A stretch of DNA of 64,000 bases from an uncultured Lentisphaeraceae bacterium (GCA_949282555.1 CASDPK010000004.1:24378-88377); one strand, 5' to 3'; counted from the first letter of the stretch, positions 1,147 to 27,284 are shown. Translations and numbers: made by a program. The notes: generated by a model not told the origin, from the sequence alone.

Positions 1147-1881
1147 TTATAAATCTGGAATCTCTATTGTGTACTCTTGCGGGATCGTGACTTTCTGTGG
1201 AATCGTCGGAGGGCGAACACGTAAATAGAACTCTTCGTCCTTGTCAAATCGGACTTCCTCATGATCAACAAACACCTGTACGCAACCCTCATTGGAAATC
1301 GTTTCGATAGCCACTACGCGCCCTGTTTCAGGATTGACATCCAATAGCACCATCGCGCCTCTTATCATGTAACTAAATGAGACGACGTTTTCCCCCTTTT
1401 GCTCTCTCCACTGATACGTTTGTGGGCGCCAACCTATCTTACCCATGACCTCCTTAATGTTGTCACCATACTTAATGCGTTTCAATCTTTTCTCGTAGTC
1501 GCCATTTATTGGCCAAAGATATTCAACGTTGTAGGACTTTTCCGCTTGGGAAGTTTCCATTTTTATGACGCGAAACACGTTCCTAAGCCGATCTTTATCG
1601 TCGAGATCGATGACAAGCCAAACATCTCGCGTTGTACATAGGGGGGAAAACACCAACAGATGTCTTGGGTCAAGAAATGCAAGTTGCCTTCGAACGTCCT
1701 CTTTTTCCCAAAGCAGTGAAGGCTTTTTAAGTTCCCACGTCAATGTTTGTGCGATGTCATCCTTTGACATTCCCGAACAAAGTTTTCGATAGTTTGTGTC
1801 AATCCATTCCTCCTTCGCGTAAAGAGACGCTCCTAAGAAAATGAAGAGAAAAACCGAAAAGATTCTGTGAGGTAGCGCCAT
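1147..1881 (-). CDS. hypothetical exported protein (partner gene of small-family cassette)
   Basis: ORF 1147..1887, with ATG at 1881 giving MALPHRIFSVFLFIFLGASLYAKEE (hydrophobic signal or anchor). It lies in a visibly AT-richer segment directly downstream of the small-family gene 1949..2293. I recognise no family. Confidence 0.65.
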   Translation of the reverse strand: MALPHRIFSVFLFIFLGASLYAKEEWIDTNYRKLCSGMSKDDIAQTLTWELKKPSLLWEKEDVRRQLAFLDPRHLLVFSPLCTTRDVWLVIDLDDKDRLRNVFRVIKMETSQAEKSYNVEYLWPINGDYEKRLKRIKYGDNIKEVMGKIGWRPQTYQWREQKGENVVSFSYMIRGAMVLLDVNPETGRVVAIETISNEGCVQVFVDHEEVRFDKDEEFYLRVRPPTIPQKVTIPQEYTIEIPDL

Positions 1882-1948
1882 AACCACTCATCCAAATAAA
1901 GTCACCACAAACGAAAACTGAGTCGCCTTGCCTCTGTTGGCCCCCTCC

Positions 1949-2293
1949 TCAACCACCGCCATCTTTGGAGTCGCAGTGGCGGCAATCGCAGTAGACAGGG
2001 CCGAAGGTATCATTGTGGAACTCGGAGACAAAACGGAGGGGCTGATTTTTCGGCGTTGTAAACGATGAAACACACACCTGTCTCGATTTTGATACGAGTT
2101 TGGTTTTCCATTCACTTACGTTCATGGGGACATCTCTTCCGATGTCGTCACAGGAATAAGAAAGGTCATCAGCGGAGATGAACTCATCGTGGACGTTGTA
2201 ACCATATTGCGCGGCGTTGATGAAAACACAGCGACAACCAAGGAGAGGCGTTCCCCTCTTCGACTTCCATACACGTGTTCCCGCAAACACCAT
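1949..2293 (-). CDS. small Cys-containing protein, family copy c1 (core GYNVHDEFISADDLSYSCDDIGRDVP)
   Basis: ATG-started 114-aa ORF. It shares RGTPLLGCRC...YGYNVHDEFISADDLSYSCDDIGRDVPMNV and a later N.P(L/I)R(F/W) motif with ORFs 23012..23416 and 25146..25496. Amino-acid conservation holds despite nucleotide divergence, which supports this frame. Confidence 0.6.
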   Translation of the reverse strand: MVFAGTRVWKSKRGTPLLGCRCVFINAAQYGYNVHDEFISADDLSYSCDDIGRDVPMNVSEWKTKLVSKSRQVCVSSFTTPKNQPLRFVSEFHNDTFGPVYCDCRHCDSKDGGG

Positions 2294-2564
2294 GTGTTCA
2301 TGCTATCACATACCGGAACTCGTAGTAAAGGCCATGCCTTACCACCGATGATTTGTCTGCCACTGCGGGTAACTGCCGTGCGGGGGTTCTATCCTTTAAC
2401 CCTCAGACACGGATGTTACGCCGCGCCGAATGCGTGGCTTTATCACGGTCTTTTGGAGCAAACAGCGTGTATCTGTTGGGAGGCGTCCGGGGCGTTTGAG
2501 GGGGTGTGCAACACCTCTCTCATGAAGTGGCTTATTGCGCTTCCCACAGACGCAGTATGTTCTA

Positions 2565-2654: not shown

Positions 2655-3581
2655 TCACTGAGGTTGCGGAGGCGTTTTGGTCGGCTCCACGTGAACCGTG
2701 AGGATGGCATCCTCCCCGAACTCCTCCCGCAGGAGGTGCTCCACACGGCAGGCGATATCATGCCCCTCTCGGACGGTCATCAATGGATCAACGCGGAAGT
2801 GAAGCTCAATCACGGCCACGGTTCCGACCCGGCGGGAGCGCAGATGGTGCGGTTCGGAAAGGCCCTCCACCGTATGCAACAAGGCCAAAATGCGTGCGTT
2901 CTCCTCGGCCGACATCCCGCGTTCCATCAGCTTGTCGAGCGCGTCGCGAACGATATCCCATGCGATCCGCAGGAGGATCACGCCCACGATGAAGGCGGCC
3001 ACGGGATCCAAGAGCACCCATTTCCCGCCAAAGAGCGCGGCGGCGCCGGCACCGATGGAGGTGCCAATCGAAGAAAGCGCATCACTGCGATGGTGCCAAG
3101 CATTGGCCAAGAGCGCGTCGTTGCCCGTTTCCCGCGCCACCCGAACCGTCACTTGATACAAGTATTCCTTGACGCCTATCGACACCAAGCCCACCCAAAG
3201 GGCCAGCAACGCCGGACGCTCGGGCCAAACCCCGAAAGCCAGCGCCCGCACCACCGTCTCGCCCGCGTGGAAGGCAATCATCAAGCCCACCCCGCACAGC
3301 ACAACGCCCACCAACGCCGCGGCGAACGTCTCGTACTTCCCGTGTCCGTAGGGATGGTCGCCATCCTGCGGGCGTCCGGCGAGGCGCATCCCAATCATCA
3401 CGGCGAAATCGGTGGCGAAGTCGGAAAGCGAATGAAGGGCATCGGCGATCATCGCGGCGGAGCGCCCGAACACGCCAACGGCCAATTTGCCCAACGTGAG
3501 CGCCACATTGACGCCAACGGAAAGCCACGTCACCCGATTGGCCCGCGCGACGCGCTCACGCATCGAAGGAAGCGGAGACAT
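2655..3581 (-). CDS. cation diffusion facilitator (CDF) family metal efflux transporter
   Basis: ORF 2655..3656. It carries the CDF signatures ALHSLSDFATDF and HPYGHGKYETFAA, six hydrophobic segments and a C-terminal cytoplasmic domain. ATG at 3581 (MSPLPSMRERV) avoids overlap with lysS. Confidence 0.85.
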   Translation of the reverse strand: MSPLPSMRERVARANRVTWLSVGVNVALTLGKLAVGVFGRSAAMIADALHSLSDFATDFAVMIGMRLAGRPQDGDHPYGHGKYETFAAALVGVVLCGVGLMIAFHAGETVVRALAFGVWPERPALLALWVGLVSIGVKEYLYQVTVRVARETGNDALLANAWHHRSDALSSIGTSIGAGAAALFGGKWVLLDPVAAFIVGVILLRIAWDIVRDALDKLMERGMSAEENARILALLHTVEGLSEPHHLRSRRVGTVAVIELHFRVDPLMTVREGHDIACRVEHLLREEFGEDAILTVHVEPTKTPPQPQ

Positions 3582-3655
3582 CGAAAACCTCAGAGCTTGA
3601 AACACACGCCGTCGGCCCGAGGAACCCACGGACCGACGGCATGAAGACGCACGCA

Positions 3656-5110
3656 TTAACCTTCGGACTTCATCTGCGGGAAGAGGAGGACGTCACGAAT
3701 GGCCTCGGCTCCCGTGAGGAACATCACCAACCGGTCAATGCCCATGCCAAGGCCGCCCGTCGGCGGCATCCCATATTCCAGCGCCTCCACGAAGTCCTGG
3801 TCCATCGGTTCGGCATCGGCCTCGACCTGGCGGGAAAAGGCGACGCGCTGGGCGTCGGGATCGTTCTGCTCGGTGTAACCGGGGCACAACTCCTTGCCGG
3901 CGACGACGAACTCGAAGACATCGACCAATTCCGGATCATCCGGGCAGGCCTTGGCCAGCGGCACATACTGCTTCGGAATGCGCGTGACGAAGGTCGGCTG
4001 GCGAAGGGTCTTCTCAATGAGCTTGTCGTAAACCTCGTGGGAAAGCGTGAGCATGTCCACGATTTCGGGCACCATCTCCAGCCCCGCCTCCGCCGCACGG
4101 GCACGGGCGGTCTCGTAATCCAACGAGAACCAATCCTCACCCATCCGCTCCCGGATCAGCTCCTGCTGGGAGACCTCGCGATACGGCGGCTCAAAGTCGA
4201 TGACTTCACCCTCCGTGCCATAAGGCACCTTCCGCGTGCCGAGCACGGTGTCGCAAAGGTAAGGAAGCAAGCCTTCGATCAAGCGCTTCATGGACGTCCG
4301 GTCGCCGTAGGCCTCATAGACCTCCAGCACGGTGAATTCGGGGTTATGCGTGCGGTCAATCCCCTCGTTGCGGAAATCCTTGCCCAGTTCGAAGACCTTG
4401 TCGAACCCGCCAACGATGAGCCGCTTGAGGTAAAGCTCCGGGGCGATGCGCAAGACCATCTCGCGGTCAAGCGCGTTATGGTGCGTGTAGAACGGCTTGG
4501 CCGCGGCGCCACCCGCCTGCCCCTGCATGATGGGCGTCTCAACCTCGATGAATCCCTTGGAGGTGAGGAAGTTGCGGATTCCGAGCAAGATTTTGTGGCG
4601 CTTGTCGAACCGCGCACGGCTCTCGGGATTGGACATCAAATCAAGATAACGCCGGCGGTAACGCTCCTCCTGGTCCTGAAGGCCATGCCACTTCTCGGGC
4701 GGCTGACGGATGGCCTTGGAAAGGAGATCCCACGCGGCCACATCCACGGTCTTCTCGCCGGCCTGCGTGGTGAACAACGTTCCCTTCACGCCGATGATGT
4801 CACCGAGATCCAGCAACTTGGCGGCATTGTAGGGCGTTTCGCCCACCACGTCGCGCTTGAGGAGAATCTGGAAAGCGTCGGAACCATCGCCCAAATGGAT
4901 GAACATCAGCTTGCCCATCCTGCGCTTGGTCATGATGCGGCCCGCCACCGCGACCTCCCGTCCCTCGGCAAATCCTTCGCGGATCTCCTTCAGGGTGCCG
5001 GTGCGCGAAAAGGCGTGACCGTAAGGCGCATATCCCAACTCGGCCAGCTTGGCCCGATTCTCAATGCGCTGAGCGCGATACTGATCCTCATTCTGAGGCA
5101 TCTGAGCCAT
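3656..5110 (-). CDS. lysS: lysine--tRNA ligase (class II)
   Basis: ORF 3656..5176. The likely start is MAQMPQNEDQYRAQRIENRAKL at 5110. It has an OB-fold N-terminus and class-II motifs (FRNEGID..HNPEFT, GGLGMGIDRLVM). Confidence 0.93.
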   Translation of the reverse strand: MAQMPQNEDQYRAQRIENRAKLAELGYAPYGHAFSRTGTLKEIREGFAEGREVAVAGRIMTKRRMGKLMFIHLGDGSDAFQILLKRDVVGETPYNAAKLLDLGDIIGVKGTLFTTQAGEKTVDVAAWDLLSKAIRQPPEKWHGLQDQEERYRRRYLDLMSNPESRARFDKRHKILLGIRNFLTSKGFIEVETPIMQGQAGGAAAKPFYTHHNALDREMVLRIAPELYLKRLIVGGFDKVFELGKDFRNEGIDRTHNPEFTVLEVYEAYGDRTSMKRLIEGLLPYLCDTVLGTRKVPYGTEGEVIDFEPPYREVSQQELIRERMGEDWFSLDYETARARAAEAGLEMVPEIVDMLTLSHEVYDKLIEKTLRQPTFVTRIPKQYVPLAKACPDDPELVDVFEFVVAGKELCPGYTEQNDPDAQRVAFSRQVEADAEPMDQDFVEALEYGMPPTGGLGMGIDRLVMFLTGAEAIRDVLLFPQMKSEG

Positions 5111-21702: not shown

Positions 21703-21792
21703 TGGCGGAGAGGGAGGGATTCGAACCCCCGGTACCTTGCGGCACGCATGATTTCGAGTCATGTGCATTCAACCAGGCTCTGCCACCTCTCC
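21703..21792 (-). tRNA. tRNA-Ser (CGA)
   Basis: The reverse complement starts GGAGAGGTGGCAGAGCCTGG. It has anticodon loop CTCGAAA, a long variable arm, T loop GGTTCGAATCC and CCA. Confidence 0.9.
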
Positions 21793-21795
21793 GGA

Positions 21796-21870
21796 TGGCA
21801 CCCCCAAGCGGAGTCGGACCGCTCTTCCAAGGATGAGAACCTTGTGTCCTAGCCGATAGACGATGGGGGC
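21796..21870 (-). tRNA. tRNA-Glu (CTC), copy 1
   Basis: The reverse complement is GCCCCCATCGTCTATCGGCTAGGACACAAGGTTCTCATCCTTGGAAGAGCGGTCCGACTCCGCTTGGGGGTGCCA. The anticodon loop is TTCTCAT. Confidence 0.85.
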
Positions 21871-21888
21871 GTGGACAAATCCCCTAGT

Positions 21889-21963
21889 TGGCACCCCCAA
21901 GCGGAGTCGGACCGCTCTTCCAAGGATGAGAACCTTGTGTCCTAGCCGATAGACGATGGGGGC
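21889..21963 (-). tRNA. tRNA-Glu (CTC), copy 2 (identical to copy 1)
   Basis: Same 75-nt sequence as 21796-21870, separated from it by an 18-nt spacer. Confidence 0.85.
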
Positions 21964-21978
21964 GTAGGAGCGATTGTT

Positions 21979-22063
21979 TGGTGCACCCGGTGGGACTCGA
22001 ACCCACACGTCTCTCAACATAAGAACCTGAATCTTACGTGTCTGCCAATTCCACCACGGGTGC
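21979..22063 (-). tRNA. tRNA-Leu (CAG)
   Basis: The reverse complement starts GCACCCGTGGTGGAATTGGCAGACACG. It has anticodon arm TAAGA-TTCAGGT-TCTTA, a long variable arm, T loop GGTTCGAGTCC and CCA. Confidence 0.88.
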
Positions 22064-22075
22064 GGCACTTTGGGA

Positions 22076-22152
22076 TGGTCGGAGTGGAGGGATTTGAACC
22101 CTCGACCTTTTGGTCCCGAACCAAACGCGCTACCAGGCTGCGCTACGCTCCG
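22076..22152 (-). tRNA. tRNA-Pro (CGG)
   Basis: The reverse complement starts CGGAGCGTAGCGCAGCCTGGTAGCGC. It has anticodon arm TTTGG-TTCGGGA-CCAAA, T loop GGTTCAAATCC and CCA. There is one A-C mismatch in the acceptor stem. Confidence 0.85.
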
Positions 22153-22330
22153 TCCTGCAAAGTGCGGATAAGATATCAAAAACCACTCCCTCCTTGCAAG
22201 CCTTTTTTGCGGACGCGATTGGCACGGCACGTCCCGCAATGAAATGGGCCAAAGAATGGCAAAAGCGGGAAGGCGTCCGTAAAAGAACGCTAACGCGACA
22301 GACTGCACCCTGCGCAAATCCACAGACCTC

Positions 22331-23002
22331 CTATGGCATCTGGTCATTCTCCCAATCAATATCATGAAATGACCGCATCAACGGGAATTGAGCATGGTAG
22401 TGAATCGGCAGATTCAATATCCCATCAAAGGGCTGGCCGCGTTTGAATTGAAATTTGACATTTGCAATCTCCCACTCCTTCGCCCCATCATAGACAAGAA
22501 AGGCAATCTCCGTTTTCAATGTACGTGAAATAATGATTTTCGCTTTACGCATGCCATCCTTTGAACTGCCCAAATATGCGTACACTCCGGATTTCGGCAC
22601 GGGGAACGCTCCATCCCCAAAAATAAGAAACTTCGTATAAAGTGTTGCCTGAGAGGTCGAATAGTCGTTTATGCCAATGCCTTCCCTCAAAAAGGCTTTT
22701 CCTTCGGCCGATGGGAAAACCTCAGGGACACAAAGCAACATCGCATTTTTCCCATCATAATACGCGCGTATTGGCAGTGACGAAGCCGGGACAAAACGCG
22801 TGGGATATTCAGAAAGAGTCAACCCCGAAATCGGGCCATAAGAAGCGACCTCCTTTTCATATTGTCCTCCCCCATTAAACTCATACAACTCTCGCAACGG
22901 AATCTTTTCAAGCCACCGCCCCAATGTTGGAGGGGTCGCAAGCCCTCGATAAATGAGCAGGACAAGGAGCAAGAGCAGAAGGAAAAGAGAAATACGCATC
23001 AT
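22331..23002 (-). CDS. hypothetical membrane-anchored/exported protein (island partner gene)
   Basis: 223 aa starting MMRISLFLLLLLLVLLIYRGLA. It is AT-richer and starts 9 nt after the stop of small-family gene 23012..23416. Confidence 0.65.
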   Translation of the reverse strand: MMRISLFLLLLLLVLLIYRGLATPPTLGRWLEKIPLRELYEFNGGGQYEKEVASYGPISGLTLSEYPTRFVPASSLPIRAYYDGKNAMLLCVPEVFPSAEGKAFLREGIGINDYSTSQATLYTKFLIFGDGAFPVPKSGVYAYLGSSKDGMRKAKIIISRTLKTEIAFLVYDGAKEWEIANVKFQFKRGQPFDGILNLPIHYHAQFPLMRSFHDIDWENDQMP

Positions 23003-23011
23003 CCCCTCCTC

Positions 23012-23416
23012 TCAAAGGGCTTGCCAATGCCGAACGGATGAGCTTGGCTCACCGCCTTTTGCCATGCACGTTTCGACGCGACACCCCATATGGTCGGGAG
23101 TCATCAGAATCACGGCACCACCGGATCTCCAGCGAATGGGGCGGTTCTCGACATTGTTGGTGACGGGCCACACACCGGTCTCGGTTTTGATACGAATTTG
23201 GTTTCCCTCCTCGTTCACGCTTATGGGTACATCTCTTCCCATATCGTCACAGGGATAGGAAAGGCTATCCACAGAGATAAACTCGTCGCGGACGGTGTAA
23301 CCGCATGACCCATCATTCTTCGAGACGCAACGGCCGTGCAGTCCGCTGGTATTGGAACTCACATCCGGGCCATCAGACATTGCAACAACATCATACATCG
23401 TTTCGATTTGCCTCAT
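23012..23416 (-). CDS. small Cys-containing protein, family copy c2
   Basis: Same frame as ORF 23012..23473. ATG at 23416 forms an ATGA overlap with the stop (23413-23415) of the upstream lipoprotein gene. It contains GRCVSKNDGSCGYTVRDEFISVDSLSYPCDDMGRDVPISV...NRPIRW. Confidence 0.6.
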   Translation of the reverse strand: MRQIETMYDVVAMSDGPDVSSNTSGLHGRCVSKNDGSCGYTVRDEFISVDSLSYPCDDMGRDVPISVNEEGNQIRIKTETGVWPVTNNVENRPIRWRSGGAVILMTPDHMGCRVETCMAKGGEPSSSVRHWQAL

Positions 23417-24462
23417 TGCTCCTCTATCATCAGTAGCCCATTTCCCCAATGAAAGACGGACGATGTCACCCACGGAAGCGTTACGATAACATTGCCTGAC
23501 AAATCTTGAATGGTCGTGCGGTAAAACCCCATAAAAAGGCGTTTACGCACAACAACGTATTGCCCGGCAAAAAACGGCCCGACATAAACATCTTCTCTCC
23601 TTGGCAGAGAACCTTGTCTGACAATCTTTTTCTTCTCAACGTCATAGCACGCATAGGCCCCGCCCAAGTAATCATAAACCCAATAAAGGTGATTCTCGTC
23701 CCACCATTTCGCATAAATCCGAAAGTTTACGGAAAGTCGAGACACCTCATTGGCATCATTGTCCAAAAAGAGAATCTCGTTTTTGCTCAATTGAGCTGCG
23801 TGATGACATCCTGAGAGGTCGGAAGAAAGGCAATGGTCAATTCCTGGATATTGCACGGGATGGGGCAAACGCGCCTTTTCCCCCGTTGTCAGCCACACCT
23901 TCCATAGTTGCACATCTTCACACCCATCATCATCCGACTCCATCACGCATAACAACGTGTCGTCCGTGAGAAAGACGAACGGCGGCTCGTTGAGTCCTGC
24001 AAGGGATTGGGTGGTCGGGTTGGGCGAAATAGGCACACCGGGCTTGGCCGGGTCTGAAAGTTGGCGAAGCATCAATCGCTTTACACTCCCCTTATCGCCC
24101 TCAAAGAAATCGTCATAAACCAAATGATTCCCACGCACGGAAAAATCGCTCCGAATCCGTTCGGGAATGTCCCACTGCCTTAGTCCTTTTCCCTGAAACG
24201 TATATTGCCGGACAATCGTCCTTTGATCGTTCATGGGCTGGCGGGTCGCGAATGTCCGATCCTTAAAATCAGGGTAGCGCTCAAAGATCTCCCGCCATTC
24301 GGGTTCTGGGCAAACGTGATCCAAAACGGCAATGACTTTGCGTTGATTGAGATCATAGATTTGGATTTTGCGCCGCGCAGCCTCCTCCATGAAAAAACAG
24401 CCCGAAGCAAAAAACAGCAAAGCCACCGACACTGCGCATCGCAACAACTTCCGCACATTCAT
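23413..24462 (-). CDS. hypothetical lipoprotein (island partner gene)
   Basis: 349 aa starting MNVRKLLRCAVSVALLFFASGC (lipobox). I recognise no family. Confidence 0.7.
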   Translation of the reverse strand: MNVRKLLRCAVSVALLFFASGCFFMEEAARRKIQIYDLNQRKVIAVLDHVCPEPEWREIFERYPDFKDRTFATRQPMNDQRTIVRQYTFQGKGLRQWDIPERIRSDFSVRGNHLVYDDFFEGDKGSVKRLMLRQLSDPAKPGVPISPNPTTQSLAGLNEPPFVFLTDDTLLCVMESDDDGCEDVQLWKVWLTTGEKARLPHPVQYPGIDHCLSSDLSGCHHAAQLSKNEILFLDNDANEVSRLSVNFRIYAKWWDENHLYWVYDYLGGAYACYDVEKKKIVRQGSLPRREDVYVGPFFAGQYVVVRKRLFMGFYRTTIQDLSGNVIVTLPWVTSSVFHWGNGLLMIEEQ

Positions 24463-24494
24463 TGTTCACCTCCTGTTTAATCCACGACCTTCCC

Positions 24495-24674
24495 TCAAGA
24501 AGACGTCGGCCCCATAAGAACCGTCGGATTCAGAGTGCCATGGCTCATGATAACACCATAGGCCACCGATTGTTCGTATTCCCCATCCACGGGACACCCA
24601 ACATGACAACCAAAGAGAATATGTGCCTCCTTCATGAAGATGTTGATGCTTGGCCCAACGGTACAGTTTTCCAT
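24495..24674 (-). pseudogene. divergent or decayed small-family copy (MENCT... start)
   Basis: ATG at 24674 gives MENCTVGPSINIFMKEAHILFGCHVGCPVDGEYEQS.... It shares the N-terminus with 25146..25496 but loses the GY.V.D...CDD core after LFGC. It is 59 aa long. Confidence 0.4.
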
Positions 24675-25215
24675 ACTTTTATCAAGCTCTCGAAACCACG
24701 ATGGCACTTATGCCTGCCATGAAAAGACATATAAACGCGCTCCCCGCAAAACCTCGCAGGGTAAACAAAGAACTACAATAAAATCCCTCGCCTTTCTCTT
24801 TTTGCGCCAACTCTTTGATTTTAGGAATCAACCAATCGTAATCGCGAATACTCCGCTTTCCAACGGCGTCATGAACGGGGTTACAATCTAGAAGTAGATA
24901 ATTCTTTCCATTCAACGTATACGTCAAGCAGAAAAAAAGTGGACCTGGCATCGCACACATCCGAATCGTATTCACACATTCAAGAGGACAGCGCTTTATT
25001 CTCCGAACATCAGGCCTCCCATAAGAATATGGGATAAATGCAATGGAATCCTTTTCGCGCACGATTTTATCATAGCTAAAAAACATCAATATACTCATTA
25101 ACGTCAGCCAAATGAGAAAGGGAATAACAATGATACGTTTCGCTATCATACGCGATCCCCCTTTGAGGCGTTCCGCCGACGTCCACGCATCCCCACGCCA
25201 AACACGAAATCATAC
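24605..25215. repeat. direct repeat unit 1 of the island tandem duplication (approximate ends)
   Basis: It aligns by eye with 25395-26033, apart from a 24-nt indel near the left end; most differences are single substitutions. It covers the 3' end of one small ORF, the whole membrane-protein gene and the 5' end of the next small ORF. Confidence 0.8.
24682..25149 (-). CDS. hypothetical two-TM membrane protein (island partner gene, paralog A)
   Basis: 155 aa, MIAKRIIVIPFLIWLTLMSILMFF...GSAFICLFMAGISAIVV. Its ATG forms an ATGA overlap with the stop of 25146..25496. Confidence 0.7.
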   Translation of the reverse strand: MIAKRIIVIPFLIWLTLMSILMFFSYDKIVREKDSIAFIPYSYGRPDVRRIKRCPLECVNTIRMCAMPGPLFFCLTYTLNGKNYLLLDCNPVHDAVGKRSIRDYDWLIPKIKELAQKEKGEGFYCSSLFTLRGFAGSAFICLFMAGISAIVVSRA

Positions 25216-25496
25216 ACCGATAAGGGGTTGCGCTTCTTCGGCAACGTCTTAAGGTGTGAGATTGGCGACAACCGTGAACGTTTTGCCCTCGTTCGTGGAG
25301 TTTCGATTTCCATGTCGTCACAGGAATAGGAAAGGCCATCCGCAGAGACAAGCCCATCGCGGACGTTGTAACCATATAGCTCGCCATTCTTGGGGAAACA
25401 ACAACCGAGGAGAATACGTGCCTCATTCATACGAATGGCGACCGATACCTCCTTCACGAGGATGTTGATGCTTGGCCCAATGGTACAGTTTTCCAT
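25146..25496 (-). CDS. small Cys-containing protein, family copy c3
   Basis: 116 aa: MENCTIGPSINILVKE...ARILLGCCFPKNGELYGYNVRDGLVSADGLSYSCDDME...KRNPLSVYDF. Confidence 0.6.
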   Translation of the reverse strand: MENCTIGPSINILVKEVSVAIRMNEARILLGCCFPKNGELYGYNVRDGLVSADGLSYSCDDMEIETPRTRAKRSRLSPISHLKTLPKKRNPLSVYDFVFGVGMRGRRRNASKGDRV

Positions 25497-26033
25497 ACGG
25501 TTATCAAACTCTAGAGACTACGATGGCACTTATGCCTGCCATATAAAGAAATATAAATGCACTCTTTGCAAACTCTTTCAAGATGAATGCTCGGCTCCAA
25601 TAAAATCCATCTCCCTCGCTTTTTGATGCTAACGCTTTGATTTTACAAATCAACGGATCGTAATCGCGAATACTCCGCTTTCCAACCTCGCGAGTGAAGT
25701 TACAATTTAGAAGTAGATAATCCTTTCCATTCAACGTATACGTCAAGCAGAAAAAAAGTGGACCTGACATCGCACACATCCGAATCGTATTCACACATTC
25801 AAGGGGACAGCGCTTTATTCTCCGAACATCAGGCATCCCATAGGAATATGGAATGAATGCAATGGAATCCTTTTCGCGAACGATCTTCATATATCCAAAA
25901 AATGTACTTAGACTCATTAAGGTCAGCCAAATGAGAAATGGGATAACAATGATACGTTTCGCTATCATACGCGTTCCCTCTTTGAGATGTTCCGCCGACG
26001 TCCACGCATCTCCACGCCAAACACGAAATCATA
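25395..26033. repeat. direct repeat unit 2 of the island tandem duplication (approximate ends)
   Basis: See unit 1. Beyond 26033 only a short remnant ending YDFVFGVEMRGRRRNISKRERV remains of a small-family C-terminus. It again forms an ATGA overlap with the membrane-protein ATG at 25968. Confidence 0.8.
25504..25968 (-). CDS. hypothetical two-TM membrane protein (island partner gene, paralog B)
   Basis: 154 aa, collinear with 24682..25149 (MIAKRIIVIPFLIWLTLMS..., RIKRCPLECVNTIRMCAM). Confidence 0.7.
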   Translation of the reverse strand: MIAKRIIVIPFLIWLTLMSLSTFFGYMKIVREKDSIAFIPYSYGMPDVRRIKRCPLECVNTIRMCAMSGPLFFCLTYTLNGKDYLLLNCNFTREVGKRSIRDYDPLICKIKALASKSEGDGFYWSRAFILKEFAKSAFIFLYMAGISAIVVSRV

Positions 26034-26053
26034 GGTCGTCCATTCATGTACAA

Positions 26054-26611
26054 TCACAACTTCGTCCCAGGGACGTATTCGGTTTCAAGGATGTGACTTA
26101 AAGCCTCGGACTCTCTCTTGTATGCCTCCAATATTCGACGAAGCACATGATACGCCTCGCCTTGAAGATTGAGTCGATTAAAATAAGCCACCATCCTGTT
26201 CATGGCGTCTTTATGCGCGGCAATGTTTTTAAGCTGACGTAGGAGCGCTCGTTCCAATTCTTCCAAAGATGTGTCGGTTTTCCAATCAAAGGATTTCACT
26301 GCTTGCTGCGCAGAAGATGTCGAAGGCTCTGTCCTTTCTGAAAGGCCCGCACGTTCAAGTCTGACCGAAAGCCAAACAACATCCAGCATAAGTTGCTTGT
26401 AAAAGGGCAACGCTCTTCGCCACCTCACACTCGGCCGAGGCAACACGATTTCCCAGCGGTGCGTTCGCTCATTTGCCGCATCACACACTGCCACGGCAAG
26501 CTCTCGCCAGTCATCCTCCGAATGCTTTAAGGAGGAGGGCGATTGGGCAAACACACCAAACGCAAAGAAGAGTGACCCGCACTTGAAGATAGCGTCTTTC
26601 ATGCAAAACAT
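26054..26611 (-). CDS. hypothetical exported protein (island partner gene)
   Basis: The track ORF 26054..26629 uses TTG. ATG at 26611 gives MFCMKDAIFKCGSLFFAFGVFAQSP (signal peptide). The rest looks helical. Confidence 0.6.
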   Translation of the reverse strand: MFCMKDAIFKCGSLFFAFGVFAQSPSSLKHSEDDWRELAVAVCDAANERTHRWEIVLPRPSVRWRRALPFYKQLMLDVVWLSVRLERAGLSERTEPSTSSAQQAVKSFDWKTDTSLEELERALLRQLKNIAAHKDAMNRMVAYFNRLNLQGEAYHVLRRILEAYKRESEALSHILETEYVPGTKL

Positions 26612-26632
26612 CGCTCCCGTCCTCCTCAAGAC

Positions 26633-26776
26633 TTAACACATTCCGCAACAATCATCCGCAGAGACAAGCCCATCGCGGACGGTGTAACCATATAGCTCGC
26701 CATTCTTGGGGAAACAACAACCAAGAAGGGGCCGTCCCCTCCGCAACTTCCATGCACGTGTTCCCGCAAGCACCAT
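26633..26776 (-). pseudogene. truncated small-family copy c4 (47 aa, ends just after the ...SADD core)
   Basis: Not in the track in this frame. ATG at 26776 gives MVLAGTRAWKLRRGRPLLGCCFPKNGELYGYTVRDGLVSADDCCGMC*. It is collinear at nucleotide level with the 5' region of c1 (about 2150-2345), including roughly 45 nt upstream of the ATG. Confidence 0.5.
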
Positions 26777-26932
26777 ACACCCATGCTACCACATACCGGG
26801 GCTCGTAGTAAAGGCCGCGCTGGCCGAGTTCAGCGTGATGTCTTTCCCAGCACCCCGCGTTGAGCCGTTGATCTTCCGCACGGCATCGACGGCCCCCACG
26901 CCCAAATCTCCCCATGGCCGCCTGCATGTGGC

Positions 26933-27005
26933 GAGAGGCTCCGTATCCCGACCTGAGACACTCCGTATCCCGAGGCGGGATGCACTAGACCCCGAGGTTC
27001 ACCCC
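26933..27005. repeat. REP-like composite repeat, copy 3
   Basis: GAGAGGCTCCGTATCCCGACCTGAGACACTCCGTATCCCGAGGCGGGATGCACTAGACCCCGAGG. Confidence 0.65.
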
Positions 27006-27088
27006 ACAATGCCCCGAAAAGACAAACGCCCATCCCAAACAGGATAGGCGCAACGATCGACGATACGTGGGATTGCCCAAAGGGGAGA

Positions 27089-27180
27089 TGGCGGAGGGGG
27101 AGGGATTCGAACCCTCGGTGCCCCTTGCGGAACACGACGATTTAGCAAACCGTTGCCTTCGGCCACTCGGCCACCCCTCC
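27089..27180 (-). tRNA. tRNA-Ser (GCT)
   Basis: The reverse complement starts GGAGGGGTGGCCGAGTGGCCGAAGGC. It has anticodon loop TTGCTAA, a long variable arm, T loop GGTTCGAATCC and CCA. Its 3' end faces the island. Confidence 0.9.
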
Positions 27181-27284
27181 AAGGATGCCTATGAACAGGC
27201 CAAAAGTGCGCCTATGATAGCACGTTCACGTTGGCGATGTCAATCAAAAATGAGACACCGGCTTATCCCGGAAGGGGTGAGGAT

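Follow-up and report, generated by a model that had tools for sequence, protein, structure and literature searches.

An island of decayed Rhs fragments and putative orphan immunity genes between two tRNA genes of an uncultured Lentisphaeraceae bacterium

The DNA analyzed here is a 64-kb window (one strand, positions counted from its first letter) of an uncultured Lentisphaeraceae bacterium (GCA_949282555.1 CASDPK010000004.1:24378-88377), in which an island at 22153–27088 is bounded by genes for tRNA-Pro(CGG) and tRNA-Ser(GCU). Small open reading frames (ORFs) of one kind alternate in the island with genes for envelope-directed partner proteins, giving, from high to low coordinate, the minus-strand chain c4, exp191, rem30, tmB, c3, tmA, a decayed copy, lipo349, c2 and memb223 (Table 1). 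The initial annotation of this DNA had likened the layout to orphan polymorphic toxin/immunity arrays, and had left the small proteins unplaced as a possible undescribed conflict or cell-envelope system. The likeness is borne out by our analysis, as the small ORFs are Rhs-derived and several of their partners have relatives beside intact toxins elsewhere. The small ORFs themselves, by contrast with that annotation, are toxin-less, frameshifted Rhs fragments, and are called stubs below.

The outline of the locus was confirmed. Both tRNA genes were located by ARAGORN, with which Rfam agrees; the GC content is 0.493 in the island and 0.622 in the remainder of the window, and the minus-strand ORFs follow exactly the order that had been reported. 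The GC content at third codon positions is 0.40–0.59 in the island genes, as compared with 0.80–0.87 in clpX and yidC. The island composition is foreign, which we counted in favor of horizontally acquired modules. All three ATGA start/stop overlaps are present. Every partner carries a hydrophobic N-terminal segment, to which a lipobox is added in lipo349 and a pair of transmembrane (TM) segments in tmA and tmB, and the stubs have no such feature. Apart from the duplicated tmA/tmB pair, the partners show no mutual similarity. No integrase or transposase ORF occurs in or beside the island, whose flanks beyond the tRNA genes are rpmH/rnpA/yidC and clpX, and the island is not linked to a recombinase or mobile element in the manner of rAID clusters. 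Scans of all nine island ORFs against Pfam, NCBIfam and PADLOC returned nothing meaningful, and an Rfam search found only tRNAs. The layout of the island is essentially as first described, but a fifth copy, c1 (1949–2293), and its partner sp246 had been missed: they form a second low-GC islet (GC 0.46; 1147–2345, minus strand) 20 kb from the island.

Rhs-shell origin and decay of the small open reading frames

Similarity between the stubs is well above chance (tblastn E-values of 1e-7 to 1e-15, with 1e-13 for c3 against c4 and 2.5e-15 for c2 against c1), in agreement with the shared motif initially described. A profile of c1–c4 retrieved 42 proteins, all of ≤266 aa, several of which have precomputed matches to PF05593 (RHS repeat) or PF25023 (YD shell). 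The retrieved sequences are plain YD repeats of the form '..YGYNVRDELISAD..SYAYDDIGNRTTAEGKTYTANNLNQYTAIDDF.PQYDADGNQTLIKTETGIWSVVYNAENRPIRW..', in some cases with further YD repeats on the N-terminal side. Among the homologous proteins (numbered P0001 onwards; comparator sequences from other genomes are numbered L001–L097), P0037 scores above the curated RHS_repeat cutoff, with 24.9 against 22 bits. The stubs have no Pfam match of their own because they are too short and degraded.

A large protein carrying the module, for which the initial annotation had proposed a search, was found in the YD shell of full-length Rhs proteins. In tblastn, c2 aligns within those of L002 (>1721 aa; 1.6e-15), L036 (2307 aa; 7.8e-13) and L095 (1698 aa; 6e-13), and the match lies ~220 aa before the core end '..YYNYRHY..GRW..D.LGL'. 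The motif shared by the small ORFs therefore represents a piece of the Rhs shell, and it is through this homology to full-length Rhs that the stubs are assigned to the YD shell (PF05593/PF25023). In L002, an array with 'MVFAGTGVWK...' ORFs lies downstream of the full-length Rhs gene. A scan of the genome collection yielded 268 relatives, the best of them in metagenome-assembled genomes of gut Kiritimatiellae, followed by Lentisphaerae and Akkermansia. The small ORFs are thus fragments of a Rhs toxin YD-repeat shell of the gut Kiritimatiellae/Lentisphaerae/Akkermansia type, and not a new family. A later N.P(I/L)(R/S)(W/F/V) motif, initially read as one position, falls in two different places, namely a YD repeat in c2 ('ENRPIRW') and the Rhs core end in c1 ('ENPFRF').

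The copies had been listed as intact small proteins, whereas comparison with intact references indicates that they are decayed pseudogene remnants of Rhs toxin genes. All copies contain internal deletions, and c1 and c3 are largely out of the ancestral frame. The ancestral frame of c1 extends for ~45 codons, after which the ancestral 'NQTLIKTETGIWSVVYNAE' is readable in another frame only; past an internal deletion, c1 returns at the Rhs core end 'NQPLRFVSEFHND..VYCDCRHCDSKDGGG' followed by a stop, and a toxin-tail remnant comes next. In c3, the ancestral frame is lost directly past 'SYSCDDM', with the ancestral 'GNRNSTNEGKTFTVVANL' lying in another frame ahead of a stop. A 31-aa deletion between two 'GN' repeats was recognized by inspection in c2, which ends within the shell, and c4 is cut after 47 codons. 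The core-end motif, PxxxxDPxGL, takes the form '..YYNYRHYNPxDGRW..D.LGL' in these proteins; neither its D.LGL part nor a C-terminal toxin (CT) domain is found in c1–c4 (c1 stops at '...CDSKDGGG'), whereas intact comparators carry both. No unit retains a CT region, with the exception of a short tail remnant upstream of sp246. At 47–153 codons, the stubs fall short of a full-length shell with an N-terminal delivery region (>1000 aa). The 64-kb window contains no full-length Rhs gene, and the 2307-aa Rhs protein matches only the stubs in tblastn. An earlier proposal that the tails of c3 and rem30 end at the Rhs 'DGRW' position was withdrawn for want of significant similarity, and their resemblance to the L095 toxin tail is suggestive only, with ~11% of shuffles reaching the score.

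Substitution patterns were compared over the 25 codons that are in frame in all copies. On these small counts, the ratio of nonsynonymous to synonymous substitution rates (dN/dS, ω) is 0.27–1.77 among the window stubs, 0.01–0.32 between stubs and intact sequences, and 0.05–0.11 between deeply diverged intact sequences. Between this strain and L091, c2 differs by 3.5% of nucleotides (6 synonymous and 10 nonsynonymous changes), while memb223 differs by 0.15% and lipo349 by 1.1%. The amino-acid conservation that had been taken as a sign of current selection on the small proteins is better read as a legacy of the constrained YD repeats from which they descend. The initial annotation had itself named frequent frameshifts and near-neutral evolution as evidence that would speak against its small-protein family, and this is largely what is seen.

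In c1, c2 and c3 (2150–2165, 23245–23260 and 25315–25330), Cys replaces the otherwise invariant second Tyr of 'SYAYDD', giving 'SY[SP]CDD', and c1 has more Tyr-to-Cys changes ('VYCDCRHCD', as compared with 'VYYNYRHYN' in relatives). These changes point to a common ancestry of the stubs or to gene conversion between them, along with A-to-G drift. A 10-residue insert ('VHAPTSVSEV' or 'IHAPTSMSEV') occurs in P0005, P0009, P0010 and others and is absent from other relatives; its counterpart in c1 and c2 is 'RDVP(M/I)(N/S)V(S/N)E', and two distinct YD repeats, 'DDIG^NRT' and 'DDDG^NQT', are interrupted by it at the same G^N position.

Envelope partners and the toxins of related arrays

The partners, rather than the small ORFs, are the conserved functional genes, and are most likely retained immunity genes. 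exp191 is 49% identical (E 1e-57) to an ORF of L002 that overlaps the end of an orphan Rhs-CT; this Rhs-CT is intact, 442 aa long, and comprises YD repeats, 'ENPFRFSSEVHD..YYNYRHYNPSDGQW..NNPIVSVDMLG' and a CT of ~230 aa. Homologs of sp246 directly follow intact orphan CTs with the motif HE(H/Q)EHARD in L036 (34% identity, 3e-17) and L030, and both of these orphans lie downstream of full-length Rhs genes. The tm homolog P0056, which is 78% identical to tmA and shares 90.6% of nucleotides with tmB, overlaps the stop of the full-length 1698-aa Rhs gene of L095, whose CT is Gly-rich; tmA homologs were found at 50–95% identity. Hence exp191, sp246 and tmA/tmB all have homologs right after intact Rhs toxins. 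The window itself lacks the cognate CTs, so that genes without their effectors here have effector-paired homologs elsewhere. In addition, the 90 nt upstream of sp246 resemble a toxin C-terminal tail, with a score reached by 1 of 2000 shuffles for the L036 toxin and 27 of 2000 for that of L030.

The two remaining partners differ in this respect. For lipo349, 11 full-length homologs with 44–97% identity were found, and homologs reside in the Rhs arrays of L086, L087 and L090; its association is with the arrays, as it is never toxin-adjacent. Its AF2 model (pLDDT 81.5, pTM 0.80) matches WD40-like folds, all of them generic β-propellers, and PDB sequence searches with lipo349 and sp246 returned nothing. 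For memb223, a metagenome scan was empty and a search of 1.8e9 representatives gave only the self-match, so that it has no comparator for its position; two weak matches to repetitive proteins in the latter search were discarded as spurious (BLASTP E 0.69). Within its lineage, memb223 is conserved at 100% in L091 and 99.6% in L096. The partners are under purifying selection, as indicated by ω values of 0.13–0.18 for lipo349, 0.22–0.28 for the tm genes and 0.24 for exp191 at synonymous divergences (dS) of 0.9–2.5.

The CTs of related arrays were surveyed in L086 (9066–10373), L002 (2324–3823), L036 (12769–13623), L030 (11737–12834) and L095 (7400–8011). They include a group-XII phospholipase A2, which scores above the Pfam cutoff, an α/β-hydrolase-like CT with GHSYGG, which scores below its cutoff, and the two HE(H/Q)EHARD (HExxH-motif) CTs, to which no Pfam family corresponds. 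The phospholipase A2 and α/β-hydrolase-like CTs fit with immunity proteins located in the envelope, and the Gly-rich CT may act on the membrane.

Strain variation, genomic setting and the conserved leader

The content of the locus varies between strains. The same island is present in L004–L006. L091 is 98.6–98.7% identical across the island, except that in place of the tandem tm pair it has one tm allele that is only 50% identical. Between the same tRNA flanks, L096 holds no more than a c4/c2 hybrid stub, joined within the shared stub core, and memb223 after it, and L097 holds a c4/c3 hybrid, a tm gene, another stub and a 210-aa lipoprotein not found in the window. In L092, a tm cassette adjoins the same tRNA-Ser. 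Given these differing cassette sets, the locus is a variable cassette array with joins in the repeated stub core, and tRNA-Ser(GCU) is regarded as a hotspot because related strains hold cassettes at the same tRNA.

Other features of the surroundings were also recorded. In L091 (1–7100), homology to the window is lost ~120 nt before tRNA-Ser, beyond which lie a 452-aa gene and a gene of >2900 aa; this flank reflects either a rearrangement or insertion at another site. A direct repeat of 31 nt (D5), found at both edges of the island, was considered as an att duplication and rejected, being the likeness of the two tRNA 3' ends. Immediately downstream of the island, five tRNA genes (Ser-cga, Glu-ctc twice, Leu-cag and Pro-cgg) occupy 21703–22152 on the minus strand, the two tRNA-Glu(ctc) genes being tandem duplicates. 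tRNA-Ser(gct) has a strong sigma-70-like promoter (TTGACA-18-TATCAT) on one side and a terminator-like hairpin on the other (27026–27051 and 27214–27243, minus strand), and simple read-through from this tRNA gene into the island probably does not occur. A sigma-70 promoter scan revealed no enrichment, its best site being that of tRNA-Ser. Within the island, a tandem duplication of ~820 nt (24626–25179 and 25448–25998; 83–91% identity) comprises a stub tail, a tm gene and a stub head. The c1/sp246 islet sits between a HAD-like hydrolase gene (292–1020) and a cation-efflux-type gene (2655–3656), with no tRNA gene alongside.

Table 1. Coordinates and features of the island, of the c1/sp246 islet and of the bounding tRNA genes
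Feature	Position	Strand	Remarks
tRNA-Ser(GCU)	27089..27180	-	Upstream island boundary; hotspot; ARAGORN and Rfam
Conserved orphan-module leader	26777..26830	-	~50 nt upstream of the c4 ATG; same leader before c1
Stub c4	26633..26776	-	47-codon Rhs fragment with leader peptide MVLAGTRAWK... and start of a YD module; truncated, toxin absent; tblastn match to the orphan Rhs L002_283 (E 4e-10)
exp191	26054..26629	-	Secreted; candidate immunity protein; homolog after an intact orphan Rhs-CT in L002
rem30	25965..26057	-	Short remnant before tmB; duplicate of the c3 3' end; stop overlaps tmB start (ATGA)
tmB	25504..25968	-	Two-TM; candidate immunity protein; tandem duplicate of tmA
Stub c3	25146..25496	-	Rhs YD fragment; in frame for ~25 codons only; stop overlaps tmA start
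tmA	24682..25149	-	Two-TM; candidate immunity protein; 80% identical to tmB
Decayed stub copy	24495..24707	-	'MENCT(I/V)GPSINI' head as in c3; part of the ~820-nt tandem duplication
lipo349	23413..24462	-	β-Propeller lipoprotein; candidate orphan immunity protein; lipobox ASGC; resident of Rhs arrays
Stub c2	23012..23473	-	Rhs YD-shell fragment, the longest of the stubs; 134 aa from the ATG at 23416; terminates within the shell, without core end or toxin
memb223	22331..23002	-	Membrane-anchored or secreted; restricted to its own lineage; immunity candidate by position only
tRNA-Pro(CGG)	22076..22152	-	Downstream island boundary; flank common to L096 and L097; ARAGORN and Rfam
Stub c1 and leader	1949..2345	-	Outside the reported island; c1 itself at 1949-2293
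sp246	1147..1887	-	Secreted; candidate immunity protein paired with c1; homologs follow orphan Rhs-CTs in L036 and L030

A leader of ~50 nt, which in relatives reaches up to 250 nt, precedes c1 (2294–2345) and c4 on the minus strand. It stands before the start 'MVFAGTGVWKSKRG..LLG', and 'MVFAGTGVWKSKRG' always follows it. Its 29-nt core occurs in 20 copies in 16 of the 96 sources, with none in shuffled sequences, and the leader is also present in L001, L002, L008–L011, L015, L017, L018, L020, L022 and L086, where one class of orphan Rhs modules has it at the 5' edge. The leader is better conserved than the coding sequence downstream and includes a hairpin, GAGGGG-N4-6-CCCCTC, whose loop varies. 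Neither Pfam nor Rfam has a family that accounts for the leader; its consensus fold has almost no covariation, with very little variation among the copies. The ~250-nt form in relatives was considered as the remnant of an IS30-type transposase on the opposite strand, a proposal dropped for lack of Pfam support. The leader may be the mark of a propagated junction, or may have a role in expression or recombination.

An orphan-immunity island and its rivals

We consider it very probable that the island represents an orphan Rhs-CT/immunity array in degenerate form, which now amounts to an orphan-immunity island. Each unit would have originated as a horizontally acquired module in which a 3' part of the Rhs YD shell and the core-end motif preceded a polymorphic C-terminal toxin with its cognate immunity gene. 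Internal deletions and frameshifts would then have removed the toxin body from every unit, leaving short shell stubs (c1–c4 and two remnants), while the downstream immunity gene would have been kept intact under purifying selection. Immunity proteins that are exported, lipid-anchored or embedded in the membrane would fit toxins acting on the envelope, and the retained genes may protect the cell against Rhs toxins of related gut bacteria. The repeated stubs would provide homology for the gain, loss and swap of cassettes between strains at the tRNA-Ser/tRNA-Pro locus. In this scheme, the immunity function, the envelope-acting toxins and the selective reason for toxin loss are what we infer from the comparisons above.

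A number of observations weigh against this explanation. The dN/dS estimates for the stubs are based on 25 codons only, and the stubs are still open reading frames joined to their partners by ATGA overlaps, so that some stub translation, perhaps as coupling leaders, is possible. lipo349 is never directly beside a toxin, one small TM gene always lying between, and memb223, having no homolog beyond its own lineage, is an immunity candidate by position only. The toxin-tail signal upstream of tmA and tmB is not significant (~11% of shuffles), and the shuffle test found no toxin-tail remnant upstream of exp191. The leader common to many orphan modules has no explanation under this scheme. Furthermore, the 64-kb window contains no main rhs gene, while classical orphan arrays sit downstream of one.

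That the small ORFs form a novel small-protein family, toxin-like or regulatory, each with an extracytoplasmic partner in an undescribed conflict or cell-envelope system, is highly improbable and already largely refuted. In its favor are the open frames of the ORFs, their shared motif, ATGA overlaps that would permit translational coupling, and the lack of any match to the ORFs themselves in Pfam, NCBIfam or PADLOC; but that motif consists of consecutive YD repeats aligning within full-length Rhs, and c1 and c3 leave the ancestral frame beyond ~25–45 codons, so that their C-terminal halves are non-homologous read-through. The copies also terminate at different points of the shell, with ω among them of ~0.3–1.8, and hybrid or truncated versions occur among strains (P0001, P0003, P0035 and P0040). 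It is likewise quite unlikely that the whole island, partners included, is non-functional horizontally acquired DNA in decay and without a current role. Low GC content, foreign codon usage, clearly pseudogenised stubs, the lack of a main rhs gene nearby and the absence of most cassettes from some strains (L096) are what such decay would produce, yet every partner ORF is intact, ω of the partners is 0.13–0.28 over dS of ~1–2.5 with full-length homologs down to 44–50% identity, and memb223 is 99.6–100% conserved across strains while the adjoining stub has diverged.

A further explanation would have the stubs and leader kept for a function of their own, either as promoter, 5'-untranslated or translational-coupling leaders or as dedicated recombination sites of an integron-like array, and to this we assign only a slim chance. 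The abundance of the leader core (20 copies in 16 sources), its conservation beyond that of the downstream coding sequence, the conserved GAGGGG/CCCCTC hairpin with its variable loop, the strain breakpoints within the stub core and the overlaps of stubs with partners all agree with such a function. However, there is no recombinase in the window locus, and ordinary homologous recombination between repeats of 62–91% identity accounts for the breakpoints; promoter-like sites are not enriched, covariation for an RNA structure is almost nil, and the leader is found at c1 and c4 only, c2 and c3 having none. A related and more speculative proposal, which we regard as unlikely, is that leader and YD stub together constitute a dedicated, integron-like cassette junction, independent of recombinases or served by one as yet unknown, with which gut Kiritimatiellae shuffle immunity-only cassettes at tRNA hotspots. 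In that case, the leader hairpin would be a recombination or expression signal.

The degenerate-array explanation places the island close to known systems. Orphan rhs-CT/rhsI modules reportedly lie downstream of rhs genes and form by C-terminal displacement (Jackson 2009; Koskiniemi 2014). Such modules keep upstream rhs sequence, at times with in-frame stops (Poole et al. 2011, PMC3150448). As in those modules, each unit here has a piece of rhs core-coding sequence at its 5' end and, at the other end, a small ORF placed where an immunity gene would be, and the units are arranged head to tail on one strand. By comparison, each unit here lacks the CT toxin domain and the core-end motif, no full-length rhs gene lies within 64 kb for the units to be downstream of, the core fragment derives from ~220 aa upstream of the core end whereas that of known modules abuts the CT, and the host belongs to the Kiritimatiellae (PVC group) rather than the Proteobacteria.

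Arrays of orphan immunity genes also arise by effector displacement in type VI secretion system (T6SS) clusters of Vibrio cholerae (Kirchberger et al. 2017, PMC5361080). Like these, the island holds immunity-type genes without cognate effectors, in part with effector 3' remnants, whose homologs are effector-paired in other strains, and its content is strain-variable; unlike these, it is Rhs-derived rather than built from effectors of T6SS auxiliary clusters, and it occupies a tRNA locus away from secretion and toxin genes instead of the 3' end of a T6SS cluster. Gut bacteria are known to retain orphan immunity clusters, namely the AID clusters of gut Bacteroidales (Ross et al. 2019, bioRxiv 10.1101/471110). 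They share with the island a gut host, horizontally acquired immunity genes without cognate toxins and a presumed protection from the toxins of neighbors. AID clusters, however, reside on mobile elements or beside recombinases and act against T6SS effectors, whereas here no recombinase or mobile-element gene is present and the cognate toxins would be Rhs CTs.

The locus accordingly belongs to an established type of bacterial-warfare locus, here in a gut lineage that has been little studied, and not to a new class of system. It is unusual in that every unit is toxin-less, that no rhs gene is nearby, and that its lineage is without such arrays in the literature searched, where orphan-immunity arrays of gut Kiritimatiellae are not described. 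A layout of small protein plus envelope partner that seemed unclassifiable is now placed in the known framework of Rhs polymorphic toxins, and orphan-immunity islands are extended to the gut Kiritimatiellae, a poorly studied PVC lineage. The comparison also supplies testable pairings of toxin and immunity protein: the Gly-rich CT of L095 with the tm proteins, the HExxH-type CTs of L036 and L030 with the sp246 family, and the CT of the 442-aa orphan of L002 with the exp191 family. Finally, the island offers a natural case of toxin loss with immunity kept, together with strain-level turnover of cassettes at one tRNA locus, which may be used for reading the history of strain competition from metagenomes.

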